Positions 12,147 to 44,730 of a stretch of 64,000 bases of DNA are shown here, in pieces. The number at the start of each line of letters is the position of its first letter. The stretch's first letter is position 1. The stretch lies in assembly GCA_035501415.1 (NCBI GenBank), contig DATJWH010000011.1, forward strand, positions 16,421 to 80,420, in the 5' to 3' direction. Source of the DNA: Candidatus Limnocylindrales bacterium (GTDB taxonomy: Bacteria; Acidobacteriota; Terriglobia; Acidiferrales; UBA7541). The notes under the pieces were generated by a model, which was given only the letters and a program-made list of their open reading frames with translations, was not told the DNA's origin and made no database searches. Made by a program: the position numbers and the translations under genes.

Positions 12147-13835
12147 ATGGAGCGCCCCCTGAAGATGAAGAAGTGGATGCTTGTTCTTGCCGCTGCTGTC
12201 GCTCTCGGGGTGCAAATGGTCGGTTGCAGCAGAAGCGCGCCAACCAGCGCCCCTGGCGTTTCCGCCCTCGCCTCCGGGACGGCAGGCGCGGCCGATCCAC
12301 ACTCGGCTGCTGATCCCCCGGCACTCGCCAATGTCCTGACGTTCCACAACGACAATATGCGCACCGGCCAGAATCTTAGTGAATCGATTCTCACACCGTC
12401 CAACGTCACCTCGGCTCACTTCGGCAAACTCACTTTCCTCGAAGTTCAGGGAAAAGTCGACGCGGAGCCTCTTCATGTTTCGGCCATGACCGTCGCCGGC
12501 AAGAAGCACAATGTGCTGTTCGTTGCCACGGAACACGATCTGGTCTACGCCTTCGACTCCGATTCATTCCACCAACTTTGGCGCGTCTCCGTGATCCCTC
12601 CTGGTGAAACGCCTAGCGACAAGCGCGACTGCGAACAAATTGAGCCCGAAATCGGGATCACGGCAACGCCGGTCATCGACTTGAAAGCGGGCCCTCACGG
12701 AACGATGTACGTCGTCGCGATGTCGAAAAACGCCGGCGGAAAATACATGCAACGGTTGCACTCGTTGGACATCACGACCGGCGAGGAGACGCATCCCGCG
12801 CAACTCATCACCGCGAGCTTTCCAGGGGGTGGGCCAAATAGCTCCAACGGCCGCATAAGCTTCGATCCGAAACAATACGAAGATCGAGCAGCACTTCTCC
12901 TTTCAAAGGGCGTGATCTACACCACGTGGGCTTCGCATTGTGATCACGAGCCGTACAATGGCTGGATGATCGGGCTGAGCCAGGAGACGCTCGCTCGCGT
13001 CAGCACGATTAATTTCACTCCGAATGGATCCGAGGGTGCCATCTGGATGACCGGCGACGGGCCCGCTGTCGATAACGCTGGCAACATCTATCTTCTCACC
13101 GGCAACGGCACGTTCGATTCATCGCTGAATGCCAGGGGGTTTCCTGTTGAGGGCGATTTCGGCAATTCGTTCTTGAGGCTCGCGGCGTCGGGCGGAAACC
13201 TCAGCATCTACGACTACTTTTCGATGCACAACAACGCCGCCGAATCCAATGGAGACGAAGACCTCGGCTCGGGCGGCGTGATGCTCCTGCCGGACTTGAA
13301 GGACGCGTCCGGCAAGGTGCGGCATCTCGCGGTGGGTGCCGGAAAGGATCAGGTGATCTATGTGGTCGACCGCGACTCCATGGGCAAGTTCAATCCAAAC
13401 TCCGATTCGGCCGTCTACCAGACGCTGCCGGATTCTCTGCGCGGTGCGGAGTTTGCCTCCCCGGCCTATTTCAACGGAACCGTCTACTACTGCGCCTATC
13501 TTTCCCAGCTGAAGGCATTTCCGATCGCGAACGCAATGCTTCCGGCAACGCCGTCGTCACAGAGCACAACCCGGTTCGATTATCCCGGCGCCACGCCGAG
13601 CATCTCTGCGGACGGCACCGCGAACGGGATTGTCTGGGCCGTCGAAAATGGCGCGAGCGGCGTCCTGCACGCGTATGACGCGTCGAATCTCGCGCATGAA
13701 CTGTACAACAGCAACCAGGCAGGACTGCGCGACCGCTTCACCGACAATAAATTCATCGCGCCGATGATCGCGAACGGTAAAGTCTTCGTCGGGACTCCGA
13801 CGGGGGTTGTCGTTTTCGGTCTACTTCGCCAATAA
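12147..13835 (+). CDS. secreted or lipoprotein beta-propeller protein (PQQ/BamB-like repeat), function unknown
   Basis: GGAGGA 12 nt upstream of ATG 12147. Signal MERPLKMKKWMLVLAAAVALGVQMVGC. Body LTFHNDNMRTGQN...VFVATEHDLVYAFD. Clear paralog of the next gene. Confidence 0.7.
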   Translation: MERPLKMKKWMLVLAAAVALGVQMVGCSRSAPTSAPGVSALASGTAGAADPHSAADPPALANVLTFHNDNMRTGQNLSESILTPSNVTSAHFGKLTFLEVQGKVDAEPLHVSAMTVAGKKHNVLFVATEHDLVYAFDSDSFHQLWRVSVIPPGETPSDKRDCEQIEPEIGITATPVIDLKAGPHGTMYVVAMSKNAGGKYMQRLHSLDITTGEETHPAQLITASFPGGGPNSSNGRISFDPKQYEDRAALLLSKGVIYTTWASHCDHEPYNGWMIGLSQETLARVSTINFTPNGSEGAIWMTGDGPAVDNAGNIYLLTGNGTFDSSLNARGFPVEGDFGNSFLRLAASGGNLSIYDYFSMHNNAAESNGDEDLGSGGVMLLPDLKDASGKVRHLAVGAGKDQVIYVVDRDSMGKFNPNSDSAVYQTLPDSLRGAEFASPAYFNGTVYYCAYLSQLKAFPIANAMLPATPSSQSTTRFDYPGATPSISADGTANGIVWAVENGASGVLHAYDASNLAHELYNSNQAGLRDRFTDNKFIAPMIANGKVFVGTPTGVVVFGLLRQ

Positions 13836-25988: not shown

Positions 25989-28900
25989 TTACTGGAGGGT
26001 CACGCTCACGTTAACGGCGCGAACGAGCGTGCTCGTTTCAGCAAACACAGCTTGAGTTGCGTTTCCCGTGACCGTGATGTCGAGATTGCCGCTCTGCGAA
26101 CCTAAATTGTTGGGATCGCCAGAGTACAGTGCCGAAATGGCGTATGTACCCGGACCATAGGGACTTGGATTAGTGATCAGCGATTGAGCTGTGCCGCCGC
26201 TTATGTTTGCGCTGCCGAAGTAAGCAGCATTGTTAACGTCAAACTGCACGATCCCCGTGATCGACTGTGCTGACGACGTAACCGTCGCGATGAGAGTTGC
26301 GCTCGACCCAGGCCCGAGCTTCGTGCTCGAAGCGGATAGAGTCGTCACCGTGGGGACGGGGTTGTTCTGTCCACCACCACCACCACCTCCTCCTCCCCCT
26401 CCGCCACTTCCGCTAGCGCCACCCCCACAACTAATCGCGAAGATCAGCACAGAGAGAAGCCCTAGTCCCACAGCGGGCTGGAGGAATCGCCTCCTGTTTG
26501 GCGGCGCAAACAACATCAACGAGGCAAGACCTGCGACAGCGCTCAAAGCCCACCAAGCGTAGCGAGCATCCTGAACCGGACGCAACCTGGGCGTTTGGGT
26601 GGGTATAGTCACGGCGGTTAGGACGGTGGAGGGCGCAAGAGTTGCGATTGAAAGGGTTGCTGTGGCGGGCGCACCGTTGCTGAGGGTTATGGATGACGGC
26701 GAGATGCTGCATGTCTCACCGAAGAGCACGAGCCCATTGCAGCTCAGAGCAACCGTGCTGGTGTTGTTTGTTGTCGGTGTGACGGTCAAGACGGTCGTAG
26801 CGGTCTGGCCGGCAGTGATGACGAGAGACGTAGGAGTTGCGGAAATACTAAAATCGGGAATGTTCACCGTGACGTGAGTGTAGACGTAGGACGATGCATA
26901 ATTCGAGTCACCCGGATAGACCACAGTAATGGTTTCGCTGGCCTGTGGGATCGTCGTTACGGTCGCTTGCAGTACCCAGTTCCCGCCGGAGTCTTGGCCC
27001 GTCGTCGTTGTAATAGGGCCCGTGATGGGAGTGAAGTCCGAACTAAAAGAAATACTACCCGTCGGCTTGAGCAACGCGTTGCTGGCGGGATTACCGGTGC
27101 TGATAGTAGCGGTGAGTGTCACGGTGCCGCCCAAGACGACGTTGTTTGGCGTTGCCGTTGCGTTAGTCGCAGTGGGATAAACGGCATACACGGTGAGCGG
27201 AGAGGACACGGAGCTAGCGTAATTTGTGTCACCCGTGTAGTGAACGGTGAGCGTGTGCGTCCCGGACGGTGCTGCAATCGCGATCTGGACGCTTCCGCTT
27301 AAGGACGCCCCACTCGATGCCGAACCGGCCGTGCCATTCACGGAAGCAGTGCCGGAAATCTGAGTCGCCCCGTCGAAGACTGTATATGTGCCGCCAGGGG
27401 CCGCTCCCGAGCTGCCAGATGACGTTTGGGCATAAACGTACAAAGGTGCTCCGATAGTCTCCTGCGGGGCGGAACCCTGCGGCGGCGCAGGGCTAAGGAT
27501 CGTAGTAGTCGTGGCAGCCGGAGTGACCGTAACCACATCGCTCCCGGAGCTCCCGCTGTAGCTGGCATCGCCGCCGTAGCTGGCAGCGAGGGTATGCAAG
27601 CCACCCGCCAGTTGGATGGTCTGATATTCAGCGTATCCCTGACTGTTCAGGTCAAACGTCCCTGGTCCCAAAGCATTTCCATTGTCAGTAAGGGTAATGG
27701 TGCCGGTGGGGCAGCCCTGGGCTCCGTGGCCGTTTTGAGAGCACGCTGAACCGGAGATGCTGTCGACGTTGACGCGCGAGAGATATGGTGAGCCGTAAGC
27801 AAACGTCGCGGCGTTACCACTCGTTATCTGGCCGGTGTTGGAATCGAATGTCACGATCTCGACCCGTGTTTTACTCGCCTCGGGATTCACGGTCACCTGC
27901 TGCGGTGCGGAATCGCTTGCGCCGAAGGTGCTGTCGCCCGGATAGTGCGCAATGACGTTGTAAGAGGTGCCGCCCGGCAAAATATTCGTGGTGCCCATTG
28001 CGACGGCGCATGGCGAACCCGAGCAAGTGCTGCTGGTCAATGAGAAGGTGCCCGCATCCTGCTGCGCGCCCGCGCCGGTATTCGCAATCAGTGACACGGC
28101 CCCAGTCGGCACGCTGGCCCCACTCTGCGCTTTCACGTTGATCGTCACGTTGACCGAAGTCCCGTGCGTCAGACTCGCCGGCGAAAGTGACACAATCGTC
28201 GTCGAGCTTCCCTGAAATGAGCCTTGCGGCCATTGGCTTACCAGGTTTGCCACGTTGACCGTCCCGAGGCCCGTTGCCAAGTCATATCCAGTCGTCGTGC
28301 TGTATCCCGATAAGACGCCGTAGGTATCGGCCTGATTTGTGACGCTGCAGTTCTTGCTGCCCTTAAGACAAGGCACGGCAATCGTGGAACCCGTCGGAAT
28401 ATCGTAGAAAACGCAAGAGGCCGCCGGGCTCGGCGCGGACGTGCACGTCTTGCCCGACTGGCCGGCGAGACCGTACAAGACGTAGTTCGCGTTGCCCTGT
28501 CGGCCATATCTCTGGTTGATCAGTGCCATGATTCCCGCGAACGCAGGCGAGGCTACCGAAGTGCCTCCGTAGCCGGCGAAATCCTGGTAAGGCGAGTTCA
28601 GGTCGCACGTATTGAACGTCTTGTCCCGCTCGCAGACAACGTAGAAGGTGTCGTTGAATCCGTTGCTCGCGAAAAGTGCAACATCGGGTACGTCCCGCTT
28701 GCCATCGGCCGGAACGCCCGTGCCTCGTTGCCAGGAAGGCTTCGTATACCCGCCGGAGCAGGTGCTCAGGAGTTGTCCCGTGGAAATCGTGCAGTTGCTG
28801 GCGCCTCCGCTGCCTGCAGTTGTGTTAAGCAGTCCGTAATTATAGATTGCGGACGCATTGTTGCAGACCTGCTCGGCGGTTGTGTCGCCGAAGAACGAGA

Positions 28901-30341
28901 AGACTTCCGAGTTGGTGCACGAGTCGTTCCACGTCACCTCGGGGATGTACTTCAGAGCGGACGATTGGTTCGACGAGTTGCCTGACACGGTCCAGTACAA
29001 GTCGAAGCTGTTGACGTCGTTGAAGTCGGTTCCCCCGACGGAGATGTTGTAAGGCGTAGAGGCAAAGCCGTTGGCCGCCAGGCCAAACTGCGCGTACGGT
29101 TGCCCGCCGTCGCAGACCGCCGAGCCCTGGTCGCCCGACGATACGAACACCGTGATTCCTTGGGCAGAGGCTTGCTGCCAGAGTTGATTGAAGAACTGAT
29201 TCCCAGCCGTTCCCAAGCCAAGCTCACATTCGCCATAACTCTCGCTCATTACCGATGCGAGGTTATTGTCGACGATGTACTCAGCCGAAAGATCGACTCC
29301 AAATGTGGTCTCGGTCGATTCATCCACCACGAAATCGACTGTAGCGCCGGGGGCGACAGCGCTCGACCACTGCGTGTCGATATCCGCCTCCCCTTCGTCG
29401 TCGACAATACCCGGATCGGACCCGTCGTGGATCACGTTTAGTGTCGAGGCTGGAAGCCCGAACAGAGTGTGAAAGTCGTTAAAGTCCTGCGGATCGATGT
29501 CAGTCTCAGCGACAATCGCGATGGACTGACCTGTGCCATTGTTGCCGGCGGTCGTTAGGGACGGGACGTTGTAGATCGTCGCCAGATCCCAGGGACCCAG
29601 CGCGAAGATACAGAATGGCTCGGAACCGTTGGTTGTCGAACAGGGAATTGGAAAAGTGAATTGGGTTTGCAGGGGCGTGATCTTGCCCGTCGCCTTCTCA
29701 CGGCGGAAACTTCCCACCATCTGGTTCATCGGACGTCGCGGAAAATTGTTCAGCGATTCGATGCCGCCAACCACGGACGCCAGCGCGGCGGGAATCTGCG
29801 GGTCGCTTGAATTCGCCCAATGTTCCTCGCCCTGCACAGCATACCTGTGCATTTCCGTGTGAAAGGTGCTCTTGAGCTGTCCGGCCGTGCCGGAAAACTC
29901 GATGGCGATGCGCCCCTTCGCAACGCGGCTCACTTGGAAGCCATGCGAAGTCAGCCACGCTGTCACCGCTTGAATGTCCTGGTCCGAAGGACCGAACTGC
30001 TGCCCGAATTGCTCCGGCGTCATCCATTGGTGGTAGTTCGGCGTCGCCTTTTCCTGCTGTTGATCCAGCAGCGTATCGAGCGCGATCTCCTGTTCTGCGC
30101 TGCGCGTCAGCACCAACAGCATGCGGTCCAGCGGGAGATCGGGCGGTGCCGGGCCGCGGTCGTACTGTGGACGTGCCAGGGGATGCACGTTGCCCTTGAG
30201 GACCACCAGATTCGTTTCATCGATTGGGCGGGTGATACGGGAGGGAACGGGGCTTTGCTGTGCTGCCGCCGAAACCGCGAACGCCGCTGGCAGCAAACAC
30301 CCCAGCAGAATCCTGCGAACGACCATGTGACCGGGTAGCAT
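25989..30341 (-). CDS. secreted sedolisin (peptidase S53) with pro-kumamolisin activation domain, Ig-like repeats, internal hydrophobic hairpin and poly-Gly linker
   Basis: Signal MLPGHMVVRRILLGCLLPAAFAVSAAAQ (ATG 30341 or 30326). Propeptide region ATPNYHQWMTPEQFGQQFGPS. Catalytic-Ser motif YGGTSVASPAFAG. More than 5 Ig-like repeats with GDxxYxxS. 12-Gly run. Confidence 0.8.
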   Translation of the reverse strand: MLPGHMVVRRILLGCLLPAAFAVSAAAQQSPVPSRITRPIDETNLVVLKGNVHPLARPQYDRGPAPPDLPLDRMLLVLTRSAEQEIALDTLLDQQQEKATPNYHQWMTPEQFGQQFGPSDQDIQAVTAWLTSHGFQVSRVAKGRIAIEFSGTAGQLKSTFHTEMHRYAVQGEEHWANSSDPQIPAALASVVGGIESLNNFPRRPMNQMVGSFRREKATGKITPLQTQFTFPIPCSTTNGSEPFCIFALGPWDLATIYNVPSLTTAGNNGTGQSIAIVAETDIDPQDFNDFHTLFGLPASTLNVIHDGSDPGIVDDEGEADIDTQWSSAVAPGATVDFVVDESTETTFGVDLSAEYIVDNNLASVMSESYGECELGLGTAGNQFFNQLWQQASAQGITVFVSSGDQGSAVCDGGQPYAQFGLAANGFASTPYNISVGGTDFNDVNSFDLYWTVSGNSSNQSSALKYIPEVTWNDSCTNSEVFSFFGDTTAEQVCNNASAIYNYGLLNTTAGSGGASNCTISTGQLLSTCSGGYTKPSWQRGTGVPADGKRDVPDVALFASNGFNDTFYVVCERDKTFNTCDLNSPYQDFAGYGGTSVASPAFAGIMALINQRYGRQGNANYVLYGLAGQSGKTCTSAPSPAASCVFYDIPTGSTIAVPCLKGSKNCSVTNQADTYGVLSGYSTTTGYDLATGLGTVNVANLVSQWPQGSFQGSSTTIVSLSPASLTHGTSVNVTINVKAQSGASVPTGAVSLIANTGAGAQQDAGTFSLTSSTCSGSPCAVAMGTTNILPGGTSYNVIAHYPGDSTFGASDSAPQQVTVNPEASKTRVEIVTFDSNTGQITSGNAATFAYGSPYLSRVNVDSISGSACSQNGHGAQGCPTGTITLTDNGNALGPGTFDLNSQGYAEYQTIQLAGGLHTLAASYGGDASYSGSSGSDVVTVTPAATTTTILSPAPPQGSAPQETIGAPLYVYAQTSSGSSGAAPGGTYTVFDGATQISGTASVNGTAGSASSGASLSGSVQIAIAAPSGTHTLTVHYTGDTNYASSVSSPLTVYAVYPTATNATATPNNVVLGGTVTLTATISTGNPASNALLKPTGSISFSSDFTPITGPITTTTGQDSGGNWVLQATVTTIPQASETITVVYPGDSNYASSYVYTHVTVNIPDFSISATPTSLVITAGQTATTVLTVTPTTNNTSTVALSCNGLVLFGETCSISPSSITLSNGAPATATLSIATLAPSTVLTAVTIPTQTPRLRPVQDARYAWWALSAVAGLASLMLFAPPNRRRFLQPAVGLGLLSVLIFAISCGGGASGSGGGGGGGGGGGGQNNPVPTVTTLSASSTKLGPGSSATLIATVTSSAQSITGIVQFDVNNAAYFGSANISGGTAQSLITNPSPYGPGTYAISALYSGDPNNLGSQSGNLDITVTGNATQAVFAETSTLVRAVNVSVTLQ

Positions 30342-30586
30342 GGCGCCCCTACGAAGGATCCTGGGTCCCAAGAATTCCAGCACCACCCCGCGGCCGCTTT
30401 CAATCCTCCGGCAACTCCCCGGTCGGACTTGTGTGCGAGCCGCTTAGCGTGCCGGTCATATTGCCGCCCGGGAAAACAGGCGTCAAGCGGTATTTCCACT
30501 GTGTTACGAGTCAGGAAAGCGAATGTCCAGCGAATTTTGGCGCAGCATTCGGCGGCAGGCGAAACTCGAAGGAGACGCCGCTTCGC

Positions 30587-33358: not shown

Positions 33359-34249
33359 TTACCGGATTAAGGCGATCTCGACTCGCCTCAGGATGTTGTG
33401 CGGTTTCGCTCCACCGCACCTGGTAAGTGCGGCGTCCTCGCACTCGCGCTCGATCAGTGTCACTGGATTGGTCATCGTGCCGGACAAAATCTTCCCGTCG
33501 TCGAGACTCACCTTGAGTTCGACATCAAAGGTTTCTTTGCCCACCGCCGCGCGATAGTGGCCGTTCTCAGTTTTGTCGACTTCCACGTGATTGTTGGGAG
33601 TGTTGGCTACCGGCGCGCGCATCCACTCTGCCGGAAGCTTGATTTCGGGCTTTTGGGGAGGCACGTGACGCACCAGCAACGTCGCCGTCTTATCGGATTG
33701 GTTGATGCTCGTAAGAGTGAAGTCGAAATCGATCGAGCTTTCCCCAAGGATCACGCGATTGCCGTCTGCCCATGAATTAGGTGTGCCGCGCTTGAAATAG
33801 AAATGATCTCCGGTGTGAACGAGCTGCCCTGTTTTGTTGGCCAGCCACAGGTCGACATAAAACGTCAGGAAGTCGGTGATCGGCCCGATAAGCTTGCGAT
33901 CGACCCGGCTCAGGTCCGGCATACGAGGAGGGCGGTTCGGATCGAGCGATACTTGTTGCCGAAAATCCTCGGTTGCGCCCGGCAGCTTTATCCTCTTCCC
34001 GTTGGAAACGAAATTTACCCAGCGATACTCTTCGAAAAAGGTTCCGTCCGCGTCCTCCTTGACCACACCATCGGCTTCAACCTCGTAGCGCCACGATTCG
34101 TTAACGCCCTTCATCAGGTAAGCAAGTTTTTCGCCATCACGGTATTGGCGCGTCAGAGGGCCCCGGCTCTCCACGGTGGTTTGAGCGAGAAGAAACGAAA
34201 TTCCGACGCAGAAGACGACTGCTTTGGTCAGCACCGTCATGGCCCTCAT
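33359..34249 (-). CDS. secreted hypothetical protein
   Basis: Signal-like N-terminus MRAMTVLTKAVVFCVGISFLLAQ. 296 aa with no recognisable motif. Confidence 0.55.
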   Translation of the reverse strand: MRAMTVLTKAVVFCVGISFLLAQTTVESRGPLTRQYRDGEKLAYLMKGVNESWRYEVEADGVVKEDADGTFFEEYRWVNFVSNGKRIKLPGATEDFRQQVSLDPNRPPRMPDLSRVDRKLIGPITDFLTFYVDLWLANKTGQLVHTGDHFYFKRGTPNSWADGNRVILGESSIDFDFTLTSINQSDKTATLLVRHVPPQKPEIKLPAEWMRAPVANTPNNHVEVDKTENGHYRAAVGKETFDVELKVSLDDGKILSGTMTNPVTLIERECEDAALTRCGGAKPHNILRRVEIALIR

Positions 34250-34312
34250 CTTACGGCCAACCGCAAGAATCCGTCAGCAGGCAGCAATGAATACTAGGCT
34301 TCTCCGAGATAG

Positions 34313-34966
34313 CTAAGGCAGATGAGGGAAGCCCGTGGATTCGAGGTCGCGGCGGAGTTGCGGCACAGAGCTGAACTGAAACGCCGCGATGCCCAGCCGC
34401 CGCGCCGCTGCTACGTTCTCCTCGCGGTCGTCTACGAAGATCGCGGAAGGCGCGTCCACGCCAAGCTGCTCCAGGCATCGGCGGTAAATCGCCTCGTCCG
34501 GCTTGATGCAGCGCACTTCGGCGGAAAAGATTTGGTGATCGAAATCACCGAGCCACGCAAAACTCGCCCGCACGTGTTCGATCATGTCGTGCTGCATATT
34601 CGAAAGCAGCGCCGTCTGGAATCCGGCCCCGCGCAGGCCCGCCAGCCATTCCTTCATTGGCTGGTTCACTCGGCTCCACATCTCCATGTCCCAGCGCCGC
34701 AGTTGCTCGATCGTTTCCGGCGTCAGCTCTACACTCGCCTTGCGCGCCACGCTCTCCCAGTATTCCGTCGTCGTCAGGTCGCCCCGGTCGTAGCTGCCGC
34801 GTTCATGGGCGTACAGCGCCGGAAATTGTGCCGCCGCTACGCCGAAGATGCGCGCCATCCGCTCAATCTCATGCGGCAGCGGCCCGTGACAAAGCACCGC
34901 GCCATAATCCAGTATCACCGCTTCGTATCGGGCCGTACCTCTGTTGTTCCCGGTCATCGCTTCCAA
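34313..34966 (-). CDS. HAD-superfamily hydrolase (haloacid-dehalogenase-like subfamily)
   Basis: Motif I variant VILDYGAVL (DxYG), motif IV-like FVDDREENV, 217 aa. Confidence 0.7.
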   Translation of the reverse strand: MEAMTGNNRGTARYEAVILDYGAVLCHGPLPHEIERMARIFGVAAAQFPALYAHERGSYDRGDLTTTEYWESVARKASVELTPETIEQLRRWDMEMWSRVNQPMKEWLAGLRGAGFQTALLSNMQHDMIEHVRASFAWLGDFDHQIFSAEVRCIKPDEAIYRRCLEQLGVDAPSAIFVDDREENVAAARRLGIAAFQFSSVPQLRRDLESTGFPHLP

Positions 34967-35062: not shown

Positions 35063-36577
35063 ATGAACGTCGTATTGATCTCGACCTATGAACTTGGCCG
35101 CCAGCCCTTCGGTTTGGCATCACCTGCCGCATGGCTGCGAGAGTGCGGCATGGCTGTCACCTGCGCCGATGTTTCGCGCGAGCCGCTCCCTGACGAAGCC
35201 GTCCGCTTGGCGGATTTGGTCGCCTTCTACGTTCCCATGCACACGGCTACTCGCCTTGCCGTGGCGCTCCTTCCCGCAATTCGCGAAATGAATCCCCGCG
35301 CGCATCTTTGCTTCTACGGCCTCTATGCTCCCGTGAACGAAGTGTATCTGCGCCGTTTGGGCGTCGGTACCATTCTCGGTGGCGAATTCGAGGAAGGGCT
35401 AACAAATCTGGCCGCAAGCCTCGACCCAGCGGACGGCAAAGTTCGGTTTTCAGGAGGTGGGAGCTTTAGCTCCCACGTAACCGGCACTCAATCGGGTGGG
35501 GCTTTAGCCCCTGAAGCCAAGCCTGCTTCAATTTCCCTCGCTCGCCAGCATTTTCGCGTCCCCGACCGCGCTGGCCTCCCACCCCTCGAAAAATATGCGC
35601 GTCTGATCACGCCCAAGGGCGAATCCCGCACCGTTGGCTACACGGAAGCCAGCCGCGGCTGCAAACATCTTTGCCGCCACTGCCCGATCGTTCCCGTCTA
35701 CAACGGCACATTCCGCATCGTCGATCGCGACGTCGTCCTCGAGGATATTCGCCGTCAGGTCGCCTCCGGCGCGCAGCACATCACCTTTGGCGACCCCGAT
35801 TTCTTCAATGGCCCCGGCCACGCCATTCCGCTTGTCGAAGCGCTCCATCGCGAGTTTCCGCGCCTGACTTACGACGTTACCATCAAAGTCGAGCACCTTC
35901 TCCAGCATCGCGACGCGCTCCCAAAGCTTCGCGACACCGGCTGCCTCTTCGTTACCAGCGCCGTCGAATCCGTCGACGACGCCATCCTCGACCGCCTCGC
36001 CAAGAATCACACCCGGGCCGACTTTCTCCGTGTCGTCGACCTCTTCCACGAAGTCGGCCTCACGCTCGCTCCCACCTTCGTTGCCTTCACTCCGTGGACC
36101 ACCCTCGCTGGCTTCTACGACCTGCTCGAAGTCATCCGCGAGCGCGGTCTCATCGAAAATGTCGCGCCCATTCAATTCGCCATTCGTCTCCTCATCCCCG
36201 CGGGCTCGCGCCTCCTCGACTTGCCCGAGGTCCGCAGCCTCGTCGGCCCGTTTGACGATGCCGCCCTCGTCCATCCCTGGCGCCATGACGATCCGCGCGT
36301 CGACGCCCTCTGCGAACGCTTGCAGGAAGTGGTCCACTCCGGCGAGAAAATGAACCGCCCGCGCGCCCGCATCTTCGAGCTCATCGAGCAGGCCGCCTGC
36401 CAGGCCGTCGGCCGCGCCGAGCAACCGCCGCGCCCTACCCTGCCCGTGCTCGCCTCTCGGGCCACCATCCCTTACCTGAATGAGCCTTGGTACTGTTGAG
36501 CCGAGCCCACCGGGGACCAGTTGGTTCCCATCGTCCAGGCCCGGAAGAACCTCAAGCAGGCTGACACTTTCGTCTGA
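35063..36577 (+). CDS. B12-binding-domain radical SAM selenoprotein with C-U-A-E-P tail; TGA at 36497..36499 read as Sec
   Basis: Radical SAM cluster motif ASRGCKHLCRHCP (CxxxCxxC) after an N-terminal Rossmann-like domain. The ORF track stops at ...NEPWYC-TGA, but the frame continues GCC GAG CCC to give CUAEP plus 22 codons, up to TGA 36575..36577. A hairpin starts 12 nt after the TGA. Confidence 0.75.
36512..36529 (+). promoter_or_regulatory. bacterial SECIS-like hairpin for the radical SAM gene
   Basis: GGGGACC-AGUU-GGUUCCC: 7-bp stem (one G-U), apical loop containing GU, starting 12 nt 3' of the UGA. Confidence 0.6.
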
Positions 36578-36684
36578 CCGGGCGAATCGCGCCCCCGAAT
36601 CTTGCTCGGTATTGTAAGCATTTTGTTCGCGGGATCTACCGCTCGGCGATTCTGTGCTATGAACTAAGATGGGAGGGTTCTGCA

Positions 36685-36810
36685 ATGGGCGCGGTTGAGG
36701 CAGCACTGGAAGGGAACCCGGCAGCGAAAGTCAGGCAAAGCTTAATCTACGGTACGGGGATTAAAAATTGGGCTAAGTTGTTGAAAACAAACGGCCGGAG
36801 CCCTCGTTAA
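36685..36810 (+). CDS. candidate small ORF (41 aa) between the radical SAM and ATP-grasp genes
   Basis: ATG 36685 is preceded by GGGAGGG with a 7-nt spacer. Encodes MGAVEAALEGNPAAKVRQSLIYGTGIKNWAKLLKTNGRSPR and ends at TAA 36808..36810. Below the ORF-track length cut-off. Third-position GC is about 59 percent by my count, which looks lower than the GC-rich wobble positions of neighbouring genes, so coding status is uncertain. Confidence 0.3.
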   Translation: MGAVEAALEGNPAAKVRQSLIYGTGIKNWAKLLKTNGRSPR

Positions 36811-36867
36811 TATACGGTTGCACGGGGGCGCATTAGAGACAGCCGAAGAACGGATCGAGCGAAGAGC

Positions 36868-38190
36868 GTGACGCAGGAAAGGTCAAATACGGGCCGGACG
36901 GCGAGCACCCGCAAACGCCTGCTTATACTTGCAAGCAAGCTTGGCTACCAGACGCGCGGCTTCGCCGACGCCGCCGAAACCCTGGGTGTCGAAGTCCTCT
37001 TCGGAACCGACCGCTGCCACAAGCTCGATGACCCCTGGGGCGACCGCGCCCTCGCGCTCCATTTCGAAAAACCCCGCGAGGCCGCCGACGAGATCGTTCG
37101 CCAGACCAAGGCCACTCCGCCCGACGCCATTCTCGCGTTGGGCGACCGGCCGACCTTGACCGCCGCCTTTGCCGCCGAAACCCTCGGAATCACCGGTAAT
37201 CCCCCCGTTGCCGTCGCAGCCTGCCGTAATAAGGCCCTCCAGCGCGCAGCGCTGTCGAAAGCAGGTGTCCGCGTCCCGGATTTCTTTTCATTCAACGCAA
37301 GCGACAAAATCTCGCGGGTCTTGCCTCGGGTCAAATTCCCCTGCGTCGTCAAGCCCACCGTCCTTGCCGCCAGCCAGGGCGTGATTCGTGCGAACGACGC
37401 CTCGGAATTCCACAGCGCTGTCGACCGGATTCTCGCTCTCCTCGAATCGCCCGAAATTCAGGTCTTGCGCGAACCGGGTCTCGATCAATTGCTCGTCGAG
37501 GCCTACATTCCTGGAAGGGAAGTTGCCCTCGAAGGCCTCCTCGAAAATGGCCGGCTCCGCGTCCTCGCGATTTTCGATAAGCCTGATCCACTCGACGGCC
37601 CATACTTTGAGGAAACGATTTACGTCACCCCGTCGCGGCTGCCTGTGGCGACACAGCGCGCCATCGAAGAGTGCTCGGAAGAATGCGTCGCCGCTCTGGG
37701 CCTCGTCACTGGCCCGCTTCACGCCGAATTTCGGCTCAATGAATCGGGCGTGTGGCCGCTGGAAATCGCGCCTCGCCCCATCGGCGGGTTGTGTTCGCGG
37801 GCGCTGCGCTTCGGTGCGAATAAGATGTCGCTCGAAGAGCTGCTTCTGCGCCACGCGCTCGGCATGACGGAAAGCATCGCGAAACGAGAAACCGACGCCT
37901 CCGGCGTCATGATGATTCCCGTGCCGCGCAGCGGAATCTTCGACAGTGTCGATGGGATTGACGCTGCGGAGAACGTGCCGGGCGTCACCGAAATTCGCAT
38001 CACCGCGCGCCTTCGCGATTACGTCGCGGCTTGGCCCGAAGGCTCGAGTTACCTCGGCTTCATCTTCGCCCGTGCCACATCGCCAGATGAAGTCGAGCAG
38101 GCCCTTCGCAGCGCCCACGCTGCCATGCGATTCAATTTCTCACCGCGGCTTTCCGTAGAACATCCGTTGACGCGAAAGCTAGCCACATGA
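36868..38190 (+). CDS. ATP-grasp domain ligase (carboxylate-amine/L-amino-acid-ligase-like size class)
   Basis: 440 aa. Pre-ATP-grasp N-domain (RLLILASKLGYQTRGF) and FPCVVKPTVLAASQGVIRAN ATP-grasp core. GTG start. Confidence 0.7.
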   Translation: MTQERSNTGRTASTRKRLLILASKLGYQTRGFADAAETLGVEVLFGTDRCHKLDDPWGDRALALHFEKPREAADEIVRQTKATPPDAILALGDRPTLTAAFAAETLGITGNPPVAVAACRNKALQRAALSKAGVRVPDFFSFNASDKISRVLPRVKFPCVVKPTVLAASQGVIRANDASEFHSAVDRILALLESPEIQVLREPGLDQLLVEAYIPGREVALEGLLENGRLRVLAIFDKPDPLDGPYFEETIYVTPSRLPVATQRAIEECSEECVAALGLVTGPLHAEFRLNESGVWPLEIAPRPIGGLCSRALRFGANKMSLEELLLRHALGMTESIAKRETDASGVMMIPVPRSGIFDSVDGIDAAENVPGVTEIRITARLRDYVAAWPEGSSYLGFIFARATSPDEVEQALRSAHAAMRFNFSPRLSVEHPLTRKLAT

Positions 38191-38264
38191 CCCGCGCAAA
38201 ACGAAGTTTCTCCGTGGCGCGCTCGCGTCCACGCGCCGCCTCTTCGCTGCCGATGGATGGGCCG

Positions 38265-38603
38265 CTAGCCCTTCGTCTTGGGGGGAACGTAGCCTTCGGG
38301 GAGCTTCGCGCCTTCGCCGAAGAAAAACTGCTCCATCTGTTCTTCCATGATCTTCTGCGAATTCGGGTCGAGGGGATTCAGCCGGAATTCGTTCATGACC
38401 ATCTTCGAGTGCTCGAGCCACATCTTCCAGGCTTCCTTCGACACGTTCTCGAAGACCCGCTTCCCCAGTTCGCCCTTCCACGGAATGCGGTCCAGCCCCG
38501 GCATTTCCTTGCCGAATTTCACGCACTTCACCATGCGCACGTTCTGTCCCGGCGCGGGCGGAGCGGCTTGTTGCGGAGCGTCTGAGCACTTCTCGTCGGC
38601 CAT
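38265..38603 (-). CDS. yggX: Fe(2+)-trafficking / oxidative-damage protection protein
   Basis: Core MVKCVKFGKEMPGLDRIPWKGELGKRVFENVSKEAWKMWLEHSKMVMNEFRLNP matches the YggX pattern. The start is either ATG 38603 or the internal ATG 38534. Confidence 0.8.
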   Translation of the reverse strand: MADEKCSDAPQQAAPPAPGQNVRMVKCVKFGKEMPGLDRIPWKGELGKRVFENVSKEAWKMWLEHSKMVMNEFRLNPLDPNSQKIMEEQMEQFFFGEGAKLPEGYVPPKTKG

Positions 38604-41433: not shown

Positions 41434-44400
41434 CTAGAACTTCGGGTGATACACCGGATATGCCGGCCGCTTGTACGTCGGCAGCGGATGCTCCTTCAGC
41501 GATTCAAGCATTACCTCCACCGCCTTCTCCAGTTGCGGATCGTGCCCCTCGCGAACCAGCTTCGGATCGAGCTCGACCTCCACATCTGGCGCGATTCCAT
41601 GGTTCTCCACTTCCCATTCGCCCTGCGTGCCGTAGATGGCCCATCGCGGCGCGGTGACGTTGCCGCCATCGATCAGTTGAGGATAATTCCCGATGCCGAC
41701 CAGCCCGCCCCAAGTCCGCATCCCGACCAGCGGCCCAATACCCGCCTTGCGGAAGTACCACGGCATCGCGTCGCCGCCCGATCCCGCGAATTCATTGATG
41801 ATCATCGTCTTCGGGCCGTAGATCGCTTCCTGCGGCTCCGAATACGTTTCGCCCTCGCGCGTTTGCACGAAGCTCATCACCGGCCTGCGCAGGTAATCGA
41901 TGATGTAGTCAGCCAGGTCGCCGCCGCCGTTGAACCGCTCATCGAGCACCGCTCCTTCCTTCCCCACCTGGGCGAAATAGTAGCGATTGAAATTCGTGTA
42001 GCCCGCGCCCGCTGTGTTGGGCAGGTAGACATACGCAAGCTTCCCGCCGCTCAGCTTGTCCACTTTGCGCCGGTTGCCCTCAATCCAGTCGAGATTCCGC
42101 AGTGCGGTTTCGCTCTCGACGGGAACCACCGTCACATCGCGTGATCCGCTGCCGTCCGCGTTTGGCCCCACCTTCAGCACTATCTGCTGCCCGGCCGTCT
42201 CCTGGAAGAAGCTGTAGACGTTGTCGGACGCATGCAGCTCGCGCCCGTTCACTTCGAGCAGATATTCGCCTTCCTTCACGTTCACGCCCGGCTGCGTCAG
42301 CGGCGCGTGAAGCTGCGGGTTCCAGTTCTCGCCGCTGTAAATATGCGTGAAGCGGTAGCGCCCGTTTTCGATCGAGTAATCGGCGCCCAGCAGCCCCACC
42401 TTCACTTTCTTCAGATCCGGCTGCGTGCCGCCTCCCACGAACATGTGCAGCACGTTCAGGTTGCCGAGCATGTCGCCGAACAGATAATCCAGATCGGCGC
42501 GGCTCGTGATCCCCGCAAGGAATGGTTCGTAGGCCGCTTCCGCCGCCTTCAAGTTCAAGCCGTGGAAATGCGGATCGTAGAAGAAGTCGCGCTCGATGCG
42601 CCACACTTCGCGGTACATCTGGTTCCACTCGGCCCGCGGATCGACGCGCACTTCCATGTCTTCCGTCTTCAGCTGGCCTTCGCCCGGCTTCAGCGATTTG
42701 TCCGCCGGAGCGATGGACCATTTATGGCCCTGCTCATACAGCATCTTTTCGCCGTTCGCCGAAATCGCAAAATTCTCCACGCCGTCCGCGATCTTCTCCG
42801 TCTTGCGCGTCTTCAAATCGAAGCGCTGGATCGCGGCGTGTGGCGGACCCTGCGGGGTGACCTCTGGTCCCTCTGCGAGATAGAGGATTCCTTCCTTGCC
42901 GGCGAACATGCCGTAATAATTGTGCTCGGCAATCGGCAGCGCCAGAATCCGCTGGCCGAGACCTTCGAAATCGATGGTGACCTTCGGCGGCTCCTTTTCC
43001 TTCTCCTTCTTTTCCTCATCCTTGCCTTTGTTCTGGTCCGCCGCTTGATCCGGCTTCTTGTCCTTCGACTCGGCCGCCTTCTCGTCATCGCTTTCGGGCG
43101 CGATCGGCGACGGCAAGTCCTTGCGCAGCACCGCGACATACACCGCGCGCGTCACGGGATGGTCGATGCTGGTCATGTCGAGCCAGCCGGTTGAGAGACC
43201 CGTATTCGTGCTCGCCGTGAAGTACAGATATTTTCCGTCCTTGTCGAAATTGGGATACATCGCGTCGCTCATGCCGTCGGTTACTTGCGTCGCCTTCTTG
43301 TCGTCGAGCGAATACACAAAGACGGCTCGCAGATGGTTTTGAAGCTGCATCGTGTAGGTCAGCCACGCGCTGTCGGGCGACCACATCACGTCAAACTCGT
43401 GAAGCGGCGAATCGAACCGGTCGGTGTCCACCTTCACCGGCGTTGGATGATCGAGGTCGACGTACCAGAGGTTCAGGCGCTTGTCGCTGTAGGCGATCTT
43501 CTTGCTGTCGGGCGACCACGTCGGTGTGTAGAAATACGACGGCGGCTCTCCCAGGTCGATTTTTCGCGGTTTCGCGAGTCCTTCTTGCGGAGTGATGTAG
43601 AGCGCGTATTCGCCCGACTCATCGGAAAAGTACGCGATCGATTTTCCGTCGGGGGACCACGCCGGATCGCGGTCTGCCGCCCCGGGGCTGTGCGTGAGAT
43701 TGCGAATGTCGCCTTTTTCCGCTGGCACGGTCAGAATCTCGCCGTGCGCCTCGAACACCGCCCGCTGCCCGGTCGGCGAAATCTGCGCGTTCGCAATGTG
43801 ATCGCCCACCTTTTCGAAGTGCGGGAGAACTTGCGGCATGTCAGCCGCGATGTGGACTTCGATTCGGTGCGCGCTTCCCGTGGCGGGATCGTACAGATGC
43901 AGCGAGCCAAGCTGTTCGTAGACGATTCCTCCCGGGCCAGCTGACGCCGACTTGAAATCAAAACTTTCGTTCTTCACCACTTCGCGCACGGCCTTGGTTT
44001 TCGTGTCATAGGCGAAAAGCGCAAAGCTGCCCTCGCGGTCCGAAATGAAATAGATCGTGTCTCCCACCCACATCGGATTGAAGTCGTTGGAATTGTCGCG
44101 CGGCAACTTTACGATGTTGGAATCCGAAAGGTCGGCGATCCAGATGGGCGAGGTCATGCCTCCGCGATAGTGCCGGATCGAGATGTAGTTGTCTCCGGCG
44201 CCAAGGCGGCGATTCCACAGCGGCACGTAGGCGAGGTGAGATCCATCCGCCGAGTACGATGCTTCGACGCCCATTGGCAGAGGCAGCTCCGCGGGCAATC
44301 CGCCGTTCACTGAAACCGTGAAAAGCTTCTCGAAGCGCGAATAGCCGTCGCGCGTCGAGCGGAAGAGAACATTCTTGCCGTCAGGAGTCCAGCCGATGGC

Positions 44401-44730
44401 GACGTCGGTGCCGGGATGATAGGTCAAGCGGTGCGGCTCGCCTCCTGAAGCGGAGACGACGTACACGTCCTGGTTTCCGTCGTAGTCTCCCGTGTAGGCG
44501 ATCATCGATCCGTCCGGCGAGAAGACAGGGCCGCTTTCGAGGCCCGTGCCGGTCACGACCCGCCGCGCATCGCCGCCGTTGCGATCGACTTCCCAGATGT
44601 CGCCGCCGTACGCGAACGCGATTTGAGTCTTGCTCAGCGTCGGGCTTTGCAGCAGCAACGGTTTCGACTCCTGCGCGCGGCACAGTCCCGCGACGACAAG
44701 CAGAGAAAGAACCAGTGCAGCTTTCTTCAT
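41434..44730 (-). CDS. tricorn-like S41 protease with N-terminal TolB/WD40-like beta-propellers
   Basis: 1098 aa. Signal MKKAALVLSLLVVAGLCRAQ, repeated PxFSPDG/WSPDG propeller motifs, C-terminal S41 region NEFAGSGGDAMPWYF. Confidence 0.8.
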   Translation of the reverse strand: MKKAALVLSLLVVAGLCRAQESKPLLLQSPTLSKTQIAFAYGGDIWEVDRNGGDARRVVTGTGLESGPVFSPDGSMIAYTGDYDGNQDVYVVSASGGEPHRLTYHPGTDVAIGWTPDGKNVLFRSTRDGYSRFEKLFTVSVNGGLPAELPLPMGVEASYSADGSHLAYVPLWNRRLGAGDNYISIRHYRGGMTSPIWIADLSDSNIVKLPRDNSNDFNPMWVGDTIYFISDREGSFALFAYDTKTKAVREVVKNESFDFKSASAGPGGIVYEQLGSLHLYDPATGSAHRIEVHIAADMPQVLPHFEKVGDHIANAQISPTGQRAVFEAHGEILTVPAEKGDIRNLTHSPGAADRDPAWSPDGKSIAYFSDESGEYALYITPQEGLAKPRKIDLGEPPSYFYTPTWSPDSKKIAYSDKRLNLWYVDLDHPTPVKVDTDRFDSPLHEFDVMWSPDSAWLTYTMQLQNHLRAVFVYSLDDKKATQVTDGMSDAMYPNFDKDGKYLYFTASTNTGLSTGWLDMTSIDHPVTRAVYVAVLRKDLPSPIAPESDDEKAAESKDKKPDQAADQNKGKDEEKKEKEKEPPKVTIDFEGLGQRILALPIAEHNYYGMFAGKEGILYLAEGPEVTPQGPPHAAIQRFDLKTRKTEKIADGVENFAISANGEKMLYEQGHKWSIAPADKSLKPGEGQLKTEDMEVRVDPRAEWNQMYREVWRIERDFFYDPHFHGLNLKAAEAAYEPFLAGITSRADLDYLFGDMLGNLNVLHMFVGGGTQPDLKKVKVGLLGADYSIENGRYRFTHIYSGENWNPQLHAPLTQPGVNVKEGEYLLEVNGRELHASDNVYSFFQETAGQQIVLKVGPNADGSGSRDVTVVPVESETALRNLDWIEGNRRKVDKLSGGKLAYVYLPNTAGAGYTNFNRYYFAQVGKEGAVLDERFNGGGDLADYIIDYLRRPVMSFVQTREGETYSEPQEAIYGPKTMIINEFAGSGGDAMPWYFRKAGIGPLVGMRTWGGLVGIGNYPQLIDGGNVTAPRWAIYGTQGEWEVENHGIAPDVEVELDPKLVREGHDPQLEKAVEVMLESLKEHPLPTYKRPAYPVYHPKF

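Follow-up and report, generated by a model that had tools for sequence, protein, structure and literature searches.

A CUAEP-tail radical SAM gene with a probable UGA-encoded selenocysteine and a possible functional kinship to ArsL

We describe here a gene for a radical S-adenosylmethionine (SAM) protein whose reading frame very probably runs across an in-frame UGA codon. The gene lies in a stretch of 64,000 nucleotides of bacterial DNA (contig DATJWH010000011.1 of assembly GCA_035501415.1, positions 16,421 to 80,420), which we call the window and to which all unlabelled coordinates refer. On the basis of sequence comparison we conclude, with a probability of about 0.9, that 35063..36577 encodes a 504-residue member of the NCBIfam family NF040546, named "CUAEP/CCAEP-tail radical SAM (seleno)protein", and that the UGA at 36497..36499 is recoded as selenocysteine (Sec) with the help of a downstream hairpin. 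The relevant features are:

35063..36577, + strand: CUAEP-tail radical SAM gene, by translation, with a read-through product of 504 residues
36494..36499, + strand: vicinal Cys-Sec dyad, composed of Cys478 (TGT 36494..36496) and the predicted Sec479 (TGA 36497..36499)
36500..36577, + strand: post-Sec extension of 25 codons (AEPTGDQLVPIVQARKNLKQADTFV), closed by the true stop TGA 36575..36577

The reading frame and its family

In the window sequence, the open reading frame (ORF) 35063..36499 starts with ATG at 35063, spans 478 codons and closes with TGT-TGA. Its start codon is backed by the alignment of homologs, which start MNVVLISTYELG. After the in-frame TGA the same frame continues with GCC GAG CCC and 22 more codons up to the TGA at 36575..36577. 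The motif of the radical SAM cluster, CKHLCRHC (C200-x3-C204-x2-C207), is found at 35660..35683. An initial annotation of the window had described this ORF, its TGT-TGA end, the resulting C-U-A-E-P and the position of a hairpin behind it, and all of these sequence details agree with the window. It had also pointed to a protein family named for such a tail, and this family proved to be NF040546. With Cys in place of Sec, the 504-residue product reaches 646.5 bits (E=2.2e-194) in a hidden Markov model (HMM) search, against a curated cutoff of 500 bits, and protein residues 3-487 align to profile positions 1-466 of 468. The hallmarks of the family are all present, namely CxxxCxxC, a C-[U/C]-A-E-P motif near the C-terminus and the alternation of Sec and Cys at one column.

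Public databases hold a protein that is 100% identical to the 478-residue ORF, and NCBI gives the family name to this exact protein. Nevertheless, every public gene call for it ends at the UGA, with 478 instead of 504 residues, so that the Cys-Sec pair is missed by gene callers as well as by the ORF list to which the initial annotation had referred. Apart from this shortening of the public record, nothing sets the protein apart from the family. Between its domains, the linker of the window version (residues ~121-158) contains an insert that varies between clades. The family is found in at least 578 species-level genomes and is very common in soil Acidobacteriota. It has been listed among the rare "CU" selenoproteins, with structure and function that are not well known, and CU dyads have been argued to mark heavy-atom binding (Haft 2022, bioRxiv 10.1101/2022.07.06.499078). 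In the literature searched, this preprint was the only source found to mention NF040546. Hence, the selenoprotein itself is already known, since its family is curated and listed in a preprint and the exact protein has been named by NCBI; the lead on its function is the part of possible interest to specialists.

Comparative evidence for read-through of the UGA

The window taken by itself offers weak evidence for read-through, because a stop-free run of 25 codons is unremarkable at its GC content of 60.6% and the local 67-nt fold has a z-score of only -1.45 versus shuffled sequence. A scan of the window for other genes interrupted by one in-frame TGA gave only GC-rich shadow-ORF noise. We therefore rely on comparison. 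Species-representative genomes and metagenomes supplied 80 loci each, and the 155 of these that have both the motif and a downstream stop on the contig were counted. If the automatic gene calls, those of NCBI included, were right to end at 478 residues, the UGA would be a true stop, the product would end in ...WYC and the similarity downstream would be a relic. This reading is hardly credible in view of the codon usage at the site. The codon following W-[YF]-C is TGA in 111 of the 155 loci and TGC or TGT in the other 44, TAA and TAG do not occur (0/155), and AEP always comes next in frame. Thus, whenever this internal column holds a stop codon it is TGA (111/111), while the genes themselves end in a mixture of stops (54 TGA, 35 TAG and 22 TAA). 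The extension is free of in-frame stops in all loci. It also has a coding substitution pattern, with an entropy by codon position of 0.64/0.35/1.20 bits (60 distinct Sec-type genes, 25-codon extension), compared to 0.84/0.70/1.43 bits in the coding sequence just upstream and 1.93/1.90/1.92 bits after the true stop. At the level of amino acids the extension of the TGA-type genes is as conserved as that of the Cys-type homologs.

The same picture is obtained from the protein side. Among the 120 best protein homologs, 110 terminate at ...EPWYC, while 9 read ...EPWYCCAEPTG[DE]Q... and share an extension of ~25 residues that often ends in ...ADTFV, as in the window. The initial annotation had suggested looking for an alternation of CCAEP and C-TGA-AEP at this column and for coding conservation behind it, and both are borne out; the opposite case that it raised, homologs ending in WYC and lacking a conserved AEP extension, is contradicted by the in-frame AEP of all 155 loci. 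The arrangement extends to a cultured bacterium. Thermomicrobium roseum carries an annotated NF040546 member on its megaplasmid, and this gene reads ESWFC-TGA-AEP.

A SECIS-like hairpin behind the UGA

Directly downstream of the UGA we find a candidate for a selenocysteine insertion sequence (SECIS):

36512..36529, + strand: SECIS-like hairpin with the 7-bp stem GGGGACC/GGUUCCC and the loop AGUU, supported by folding and covariation

The hairpin is made up of GGGGACC (36512..36518), AGUU (36519..36522) and GGUUCCC (36523..36529). It begins 12 nt past the UGA and lies within the coding sequence, where it codes for G-D-Q-L-V-P. We compared an ungapped alignment of 59 TGA loci with an alignment of 20 Cys loci, using 500 shuffles for each. 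Of the helix cells in the TGA loci, 86.2% are paired, and 4 pairs show compensatory changes (24 double-change cells); none of the 500 shuffles matched the observed values, and every slid register was worse. In the Cys loci the same columns are 54.3% paired and 456/500 shuffles were equal or better. Stem variants include GGCGACC/GGUUGCC, GGAGACC/GGUUUCC, ACCGGCC/GGCCGGC and CGGAGC/GCUCUG, and the apical loop is AGUU or AGGU in 59/59 TGA loci. When the 54 nt that follow the codon are folded, the energy averages -17.1 kcal/mol in TGA-type loci versus -12.9 kcal/mol in Cys-type loci. The stem constrains the protein sequence as well: Sec-type genes read ...DQLVP..., with CCC making up the 3' arm, and Cys-type genes mostly read ...DQ[LF]VS.... 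In T. roseum a hairpin GGACCC-GUC-GGGUCC is found at the same offset as in the window. Rfam returned no SECIS or other relevant family, either for the whole window at gathering thresholds or for 36400..36900 under permissive settings; bacterial SECIS elements are not usefully modelled there. Compensatory changes preserve the hairpin in TGA-type loci and not in Cys-type ones, and by these sequence criteria its behavior is that of a bacterial SECIS, in line with its earlier proposal as a SECIS candidate. This behavior counts against plain termination and also against general opal suppression.

None of selA, selB, selC and selD turned up in the window or in the loci, which is uninformative because these cover so little of each genome. 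A tblastn search with E. coli SelD, SelA and SelB against the window and 162 loci (2.1 Mb) gave a single match, a DgaE-family lyase dependent on pyridoxal 5'-phosphate (PLP) in locus L083, which is not SelA. The 64-kb window, part of a 3.1-Mb contig, has no tRNA of any kind, hence no tRNA-Sec, and the T. roseum megaplasmid was not among the matches listed when SelD was searched against a plasmid collection. The lack of a tRNA-Sec or sel gene within the window would also fit a UGA that is read through without Sec, for example by an opal-suppressing allo-tRNA that inserts Cys or Ser, and Acidobacteria do carry unusual 8/4 and 9/3 tRNAs that have been proposed as missense or nonsense suppressors. 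However, we consider such suppression very improbable. A position-fixed, covarying hairpin that is present only in TGA-type loci is what decoding by SelB and a SECIS leads one to expect, and the same combination of UGA and hairpin occurs outside Acidobacteria, in T. roseum and in Chloroflexota loci. Furthermore, the family is curated as a selenoprotein, and the Acidobacteria as a phylum have been reported to possess selenoproteins.

Domain architecture

The read-through product consists of a B12-binding-like domain, a radical SAM core, a helical C-terminal domain and a tail, and the first two are placed as follows:

35063..35422, + strand: N-terminal Rossmann-type, B12-binding-like domain, ~residues 1-120, as predicted from the AlphaFold2 model of homolog P0007 and Foldseek
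35651..36064, + strand: radical SAM core, residues 197-334 (Pfam PF04055, 49.9 bits)

The AlphaFold2 model is that of P0007, a natural Cys-type homolog that is 77% identical to the window protein (predicted TM-score, pTM, 0.78; mean predicted local distance difference test score, pLDDT, 74.2). In this model, residues 2-118 alternate between strands and helices and are followed by the radical SAM core and C-terminal helices. The N-terminal domain is followed by the linker at residues 121-158, the length of which varies between homologs. In the tail, the pLDDT is ~55 for the linker and <50 for WYCCAEP, and a weakly predicted helix comes last. The tail can be described as a poorly ordered Pro-rich linker that bears the invariant motif EPWY-C-U-AEP, and the low pLDDT values of WYCCAEP and the linker are consistent with a mobile arm.

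The best Foldseek matches of the model are AprD4, OxsB, TsrM, MgmA and MiaB. With AprD4, OxsB, TsrM and MgmA it shares the two-domain fold (Foldseek E 4e-14 to 1e-9, query-normalised TM-score ~0.6), but only 14-17% identity, and these enzymes have no Cys-Sec tail. The B12-binding-like domain of the initial annotation is recovered in these structural matches, AprD4, OxsB and TsrM being the best, and the likeness to B12 proteins is here one of fold only. At E<=0.01 the window protein gives no match to the B12-binding family PF02310, though this family is precomputed for several homologs. A sequence search of the PDB with the protein gave no match. The cluster cysteines C200, C204 and C207 are invariant in 32 homologs. 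Three further cysteines are invariant in the family, C34 (35162..35164), C83 (35309..35311) and C294 (35942..35944). They could provide a third ligand for an atom bound by the tail, an auxiliary site or redox partners.

Relation to ArsL

The second-best family for the protein is the ArsL model NF040542 (RCCLKC-tail), with 289.6 bits over residues 4-424, and none of the other radical SAM families exceeds 38 bits. Directly compared, the window protein and an RCCLKC-tail protein are 34% identical over residues 1-427 (E=4e-87). ArsL, the enzyme that forms the C-As bond in the biosynthesis of the arsenic antibiotic arsinothricin, is the nearest characterized relative. Three cysteines of its tail bind As(III), its substrate, and when the tail is deleted or mutated the product is lost and SAM cleavage is retained. 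ArsL has no auxiliary cluster and generates a 3-amino-3-carboxypropyl (ACP) species by noncanonical SAM cleavage, with release of methylthioadenosine (MTA). It has been proposed that the bound arsenic attacks an Fe-ACP organometallic intermediate. In the pathway ArsL is followed by the methyltransferase ArsM.

The likeness between the two proteins covers ~425 residues of matching architecture, with a Rossmann-like N-terminal domain, a radical SAM core and a C-terminal helical domain, and both carry a vicinal cysteine dyad on a C-terminal tail, Cys-Sec in the window protein. The genes of both tend to be found with an ATP-grasp ligase of the L-amino-acid-ligase (Lal) type, and some members have a methylating partner, transporters and acetyltransferases. 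They differ in the tail itself. ArsL ends in RCCLKC (...MKRCCLKC), whereas the window protein reads ...EPWYCUAEPTGDQ..., in which C-U-A-E-P is followed by 11 to 32 more residues in the family. The CUAEP dyad offers two ligand atoms (S and Se) and the ArsL tail three S, and CUAEP proteins have the three extra invariant cysteines. Their loci are situated outside ars islands.

Genes that accompany the radical SAM gene

In the window the gene order is acnA (-), a gene for a hypothetical protein of 296 residues (-), a HAD hydrolase gene (-), the radical SAM gene (+), an ATP-grasp gene (+), yggX (-), zwf (+) and glk (+). The gene that follows the radical SAM gene is:

36868..38190, + strand: ATP-grasp ligase of L-amino-acid-ligase type, 440 residues, with the Pfam domains ATPgrasp_N, ATP-grasp_4 and LAL_C2

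Partner genes were counted in the 120 informative loci, those with at least 1.5 kb of sequence downstream of the radical SAM gene. An ATP-grasp gene lies directly downstream in 100/120 of them, so that the neighbourhood comparison proposed by the initial annotation identifies the ATP-grasp gene as a conserved partner. The small ORF next to it, which the initial annotation had named as well, does not share this standing: the first 80 related loci contain no counterpart of 36685..36810 (41 residues), and we do not count it as a gene. The partners differ with the type of tail. The 90 long-tail loci have the ATP-grasp gene downstream in 88 cases, CpaM followed by an HgcAB-like gene in 0 and neither in 2. 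The 30 short-tail loci have ATP-grasp in 12 (5 with DUF169), CpaM and then the HgcAB-like gene in 5 (2 after DUF169) and neither in 13. In the 5 latter loci with CpaM (L080, L090, L105, L112 and L146) the radical SAM gene is followed by CpaM, sometimes after DUF169, and next by the gene of an HgcAB-like fusion. CpaM is a corrinoid-protein-associated methyltransferase (NF043040, 244.9 bits, cutoff 180), and the fusion protein matches NF043039 with 332.2 bits (cutoff 285). In L080 (10363..16175) a B12-binding radical SAM protein and a VioD-like PLP enzyme also follow the HgcAB-like module. DUF169 and a UbiE-type methyltransferase have also been drawn beside HgcA-like genes of Nitrospina. HgcAB-like fusion proteins have been reported not to methylate mercury, and for this reason the adjacency to CUAEP genes may show their real role. 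Literature searches on CpaM and the HgcAB-like fusion gave nothing relevant. With other CU selenoproteins (MerB-like SAO proteins, HgcA and MerT variants; Haft 2022) the family has the rare Cys-Sec dipeptide in common, but the folds are unrelated, and the HgcAB-like/CpaM link is seen in the 5 short-tail loci of the sister clade and not in the window locus.

A ligase of this type is also found on the ArsL side. Three Bacillota ars islands of the ArsL type hold a Lal-type ATP-grasp gene whose product has the same three Pfam domains and is 24-25% identical to that of the window, a hint that these islands may produce arsinothricin-like compounds in the form of peptides. The islands are L082 (Alicyclobacillus pAACI01), L165 (B. 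cereus pAH820_272) and L166 (Priestia pBEH3), and each also has a gene of the carboxymuconolactone-decarboxylase family, near ArsN1/GNAT, MIP or MFS, a GTP-binding protein, ArsR and ACR3/ArsB. In T. roseum the genes around the CUAEP gene code for an MFS transporter, a GNAT acetyltransferase and a PLP enzyme, a setting reminiscent of the way in which arsinothricin clusters provide for export and self-resistance.

A possible function of the Cys-Sec tail

By analogy to ArsL, we think it possible, at somewhat less than even odds, that the CUAEP protein has an ArsL-like function in which the tail is a substrate-holding arm for a soft atom. We favour a substrate-holding tail because that of ArsL binds the substrate and because the partner genes parallel those of ArsL systems. 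The thiolate/selenolate dyad of the flexible tail would bind a soft, thiophilic atom, such as a metalloid, metal or chalcogen species, and present it to the [4Fe-4S]/SAM site. There, a group derived from SAM, most likely 3-amino-3-carboxypropyl as in ArsL, would be joined to the atom to give an unusual amino acid. In the clade of the window, the adjacent ATP-grasp enzyme might ligate this product to another amino acid, and in the other clade the corrinoid HgcAB-like/CpaM module might methylate it, in parallel to the succession of ArsL and ArsM. The acceptor atom is probably not arsenic. Arsenic was ruled out as the default substrate, since ars genes are absent from the ~160 CUAEP loci with the exception of L130, where ACR3 and a thioredoxin-type ArsC lie ~3-4 kb downstream (about 12278..13737, - strand of that locus), maybe by coincidence. 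The full chain of events, in which the 3-amino-3-carboxypropyl group is attached to a dyad-bound soft atom that is not arsenic (such as a species of antimony, selenium, tellurium or mercury) and the resulting new organo-element amino acid is converted into a dipeptide or a methylated compound, is a tentative proposal drawn from the same analogy, and we regard it as unlikely to hold in all its parts.

Several findings weigh against such an ArsL-like function. The ArsL score of the window protein (289.6 bits) is below the NF040542 cutoff of 450, the RCCLKC tail is replaced by another motif and this motif stands ~50 residues further from the core. C34, C83 and C294, invariant in the CUAEP family, are absent from the ArsL-type sequence that was compared. 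No ArsM, ArsN1, ArsR, ArsD or MIP was found in the ~160 CUAEP loci, and neither partner type is present in 13/30 short-tail loci. Finally, the pair of radical SAM and ATP-grasp genes is set among the housekeeping genes acnA, yggX, zwf and glk and is near-universal in its acidobacterial clade, which argues for a physiological role rather than a sporadic role in antibiotic production.

Adjacent Cys and Sec are known from the chemistry of thioredoxin reductase, and in class I ribonucleotide reductase a C-terminal cysteine pair shuttles electrons. From the likeness to thioredoxin reductase, the initial annotation had suggested a selenenylsulfide shuttle serving the radical SAM core. In such a model the pair would alternate between selenenylsulfide and selenolthiol, carry reducing equivalents into the radical SAM active site and re-reduce it after turnover. 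The interchange of Sec and Cys at one column is typical of redox-active residues, the dyad is placed by the model on a low-confidence and presumably flexible tail, and C34, C83 and C294 could be the partners to be reduced. The resemblance to thioredoxin reductase, an adjacent Cys-Sec on a flexible C-terminal segment with natural Sec/Cys variants, ends there. The window protein is a radical SAM protein that lacks the FAD/NADPH fold and any flavin/NAD(P)H disulfide-reductase domain, and its gene has neither a thioredoxin-like gene nor another redox gene nearby. Its dyad is not the penultimate pair of a GCUG end but is trailed by 25 residues, and by 11 to 32 conserved residues across the family. 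Instead of redox proteins, the genes that accompany it encode a ligase or a corrinoid methylation module, and ArsL, the only characterized homolog, uses its Cys-rich tail for the substrate and can dispense with it for SAM cleavage. We therefore consider a redox shuttle rather unlikely.

The dyad might also ligate an auxiliary Fe-S cluster or a metal together with C34, C83 and C294, or the selenolate might itself accept the SAM-derived group in a self-modification or single turnover. The three extra invariant cysteines that ArsL lacks would suit the first idea, as would the presence among the structural neighbours of MiaB-type enzymes, which hold an auxiliary cluster in the N-terminal Rossmann-like domain. 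Yet ArsL works without an auxiliary cluster, and only 2/3 of the extra cysteines fall into the N-terminal domain, so that the pattern is not that of MiaB. For the second idea, the mechanism proposed for ArsL needs only a nucleophile acting on Fe-ACP, and a selenolate could serve as such; the conserved ligase partner would, however, be left unexplained. Both appear improbable to us, and a tail that holds the substrate is the reading that we retain.

Further neighbours and the origin of the window

Convergent with the ATP-grasp gene is a gene assigned to PF04362 in public gene calls:

38265..38534, - strand: yggX, Fe(2+)-trafficking / oxidative damage protection protein, 89 residues (NF003817, 125.1 bits, cutoff 74)

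It is located beside the radical SAM/ATP-grasp pair in 66/80 and 35/80 loci. In the long-tail clade it stands behind the ATP-grasp gene in convergent orientation. Some short-tail loci (L068, L071, L091, L096, L104 and L115) have it directly upstream of the radical SAM gene and in the same direction. This linkage in two arrangements hints at a functional tie to the Fe-S cluster of the radical SAM protein. On the + strand, the ORF 38187..38585 (132 residues), which overlaps the ATP-grasp stop (ATGA), is conserved in 66/80 loci but was rejected as an antisense shadow of yggX. The genes acnA, zwf and glk beside the pair look like lineage synteny. The spacer 36578..36867 between the true stop of the radical SAM gene and the ATP-grasp start is 290 nt long, compared to roughly 0-170 nt in most related loci, and no promoter or terminator consensus and no Rfam family were found in it. 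On the other side, acnA is directly divergent from the radical SAM gene in most related genomes, ~85-150 nt apart. In the window 33359..34966 (-) lies between the two, with the HAD-family hydrolase gene at 34313..34966 and the gene for the 296-residue protein at 33359..34249, which has no family match and a signal-peptide-like N-terminus. The flanking ORFs 25989..30386 (-) and 41434..44730 (-), of 1465 and 1098 residues, also have signal-peptide-like N-termini and resemble, by eye only, secreted peptidase or beta-propeller-type proteins.

The metagenome-assembled genome with the exact protein is labelled 'Candidatus Limnocylindrales' (Chloroflexota) at NCBI. Near-identical syntenic loci of the 'SMAG' TPA series (L003, L036, L043, L061, L063 and L076) bear labels of Dormiibacterota, Methylomirabilota, Verrucomicrobiia, Baltobacteraceae or Binatia, and all other close relatives, with acnA 74-89% identical, are Acidobacteriota (Acidiferrales/Acidoferrum/Terriglobia). 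The labels of the SMAG series do not look trustworthy, and an acidobacterial origin of the window is the most likely one.

Implications

A curated selenoprotein family is still routinely cut at its UGA in public records, with the loss of Sec and the 25 residues behind it. The sisterhood with ArsL, the shared L-amino-acid-ligase partner and the adjacency to HgcAB-like/CpaM genes are three links that we did not find in the literature searched. Together they lead to a testable hypothesis on the formation of a carbon-heteroatom bond by noncanonical radical SAM chemistry. If it is true, such a pathway would be widespread in soil Acidobacteriota, and the HgcAB-like fusions that do not methylate mercury would gain a function.

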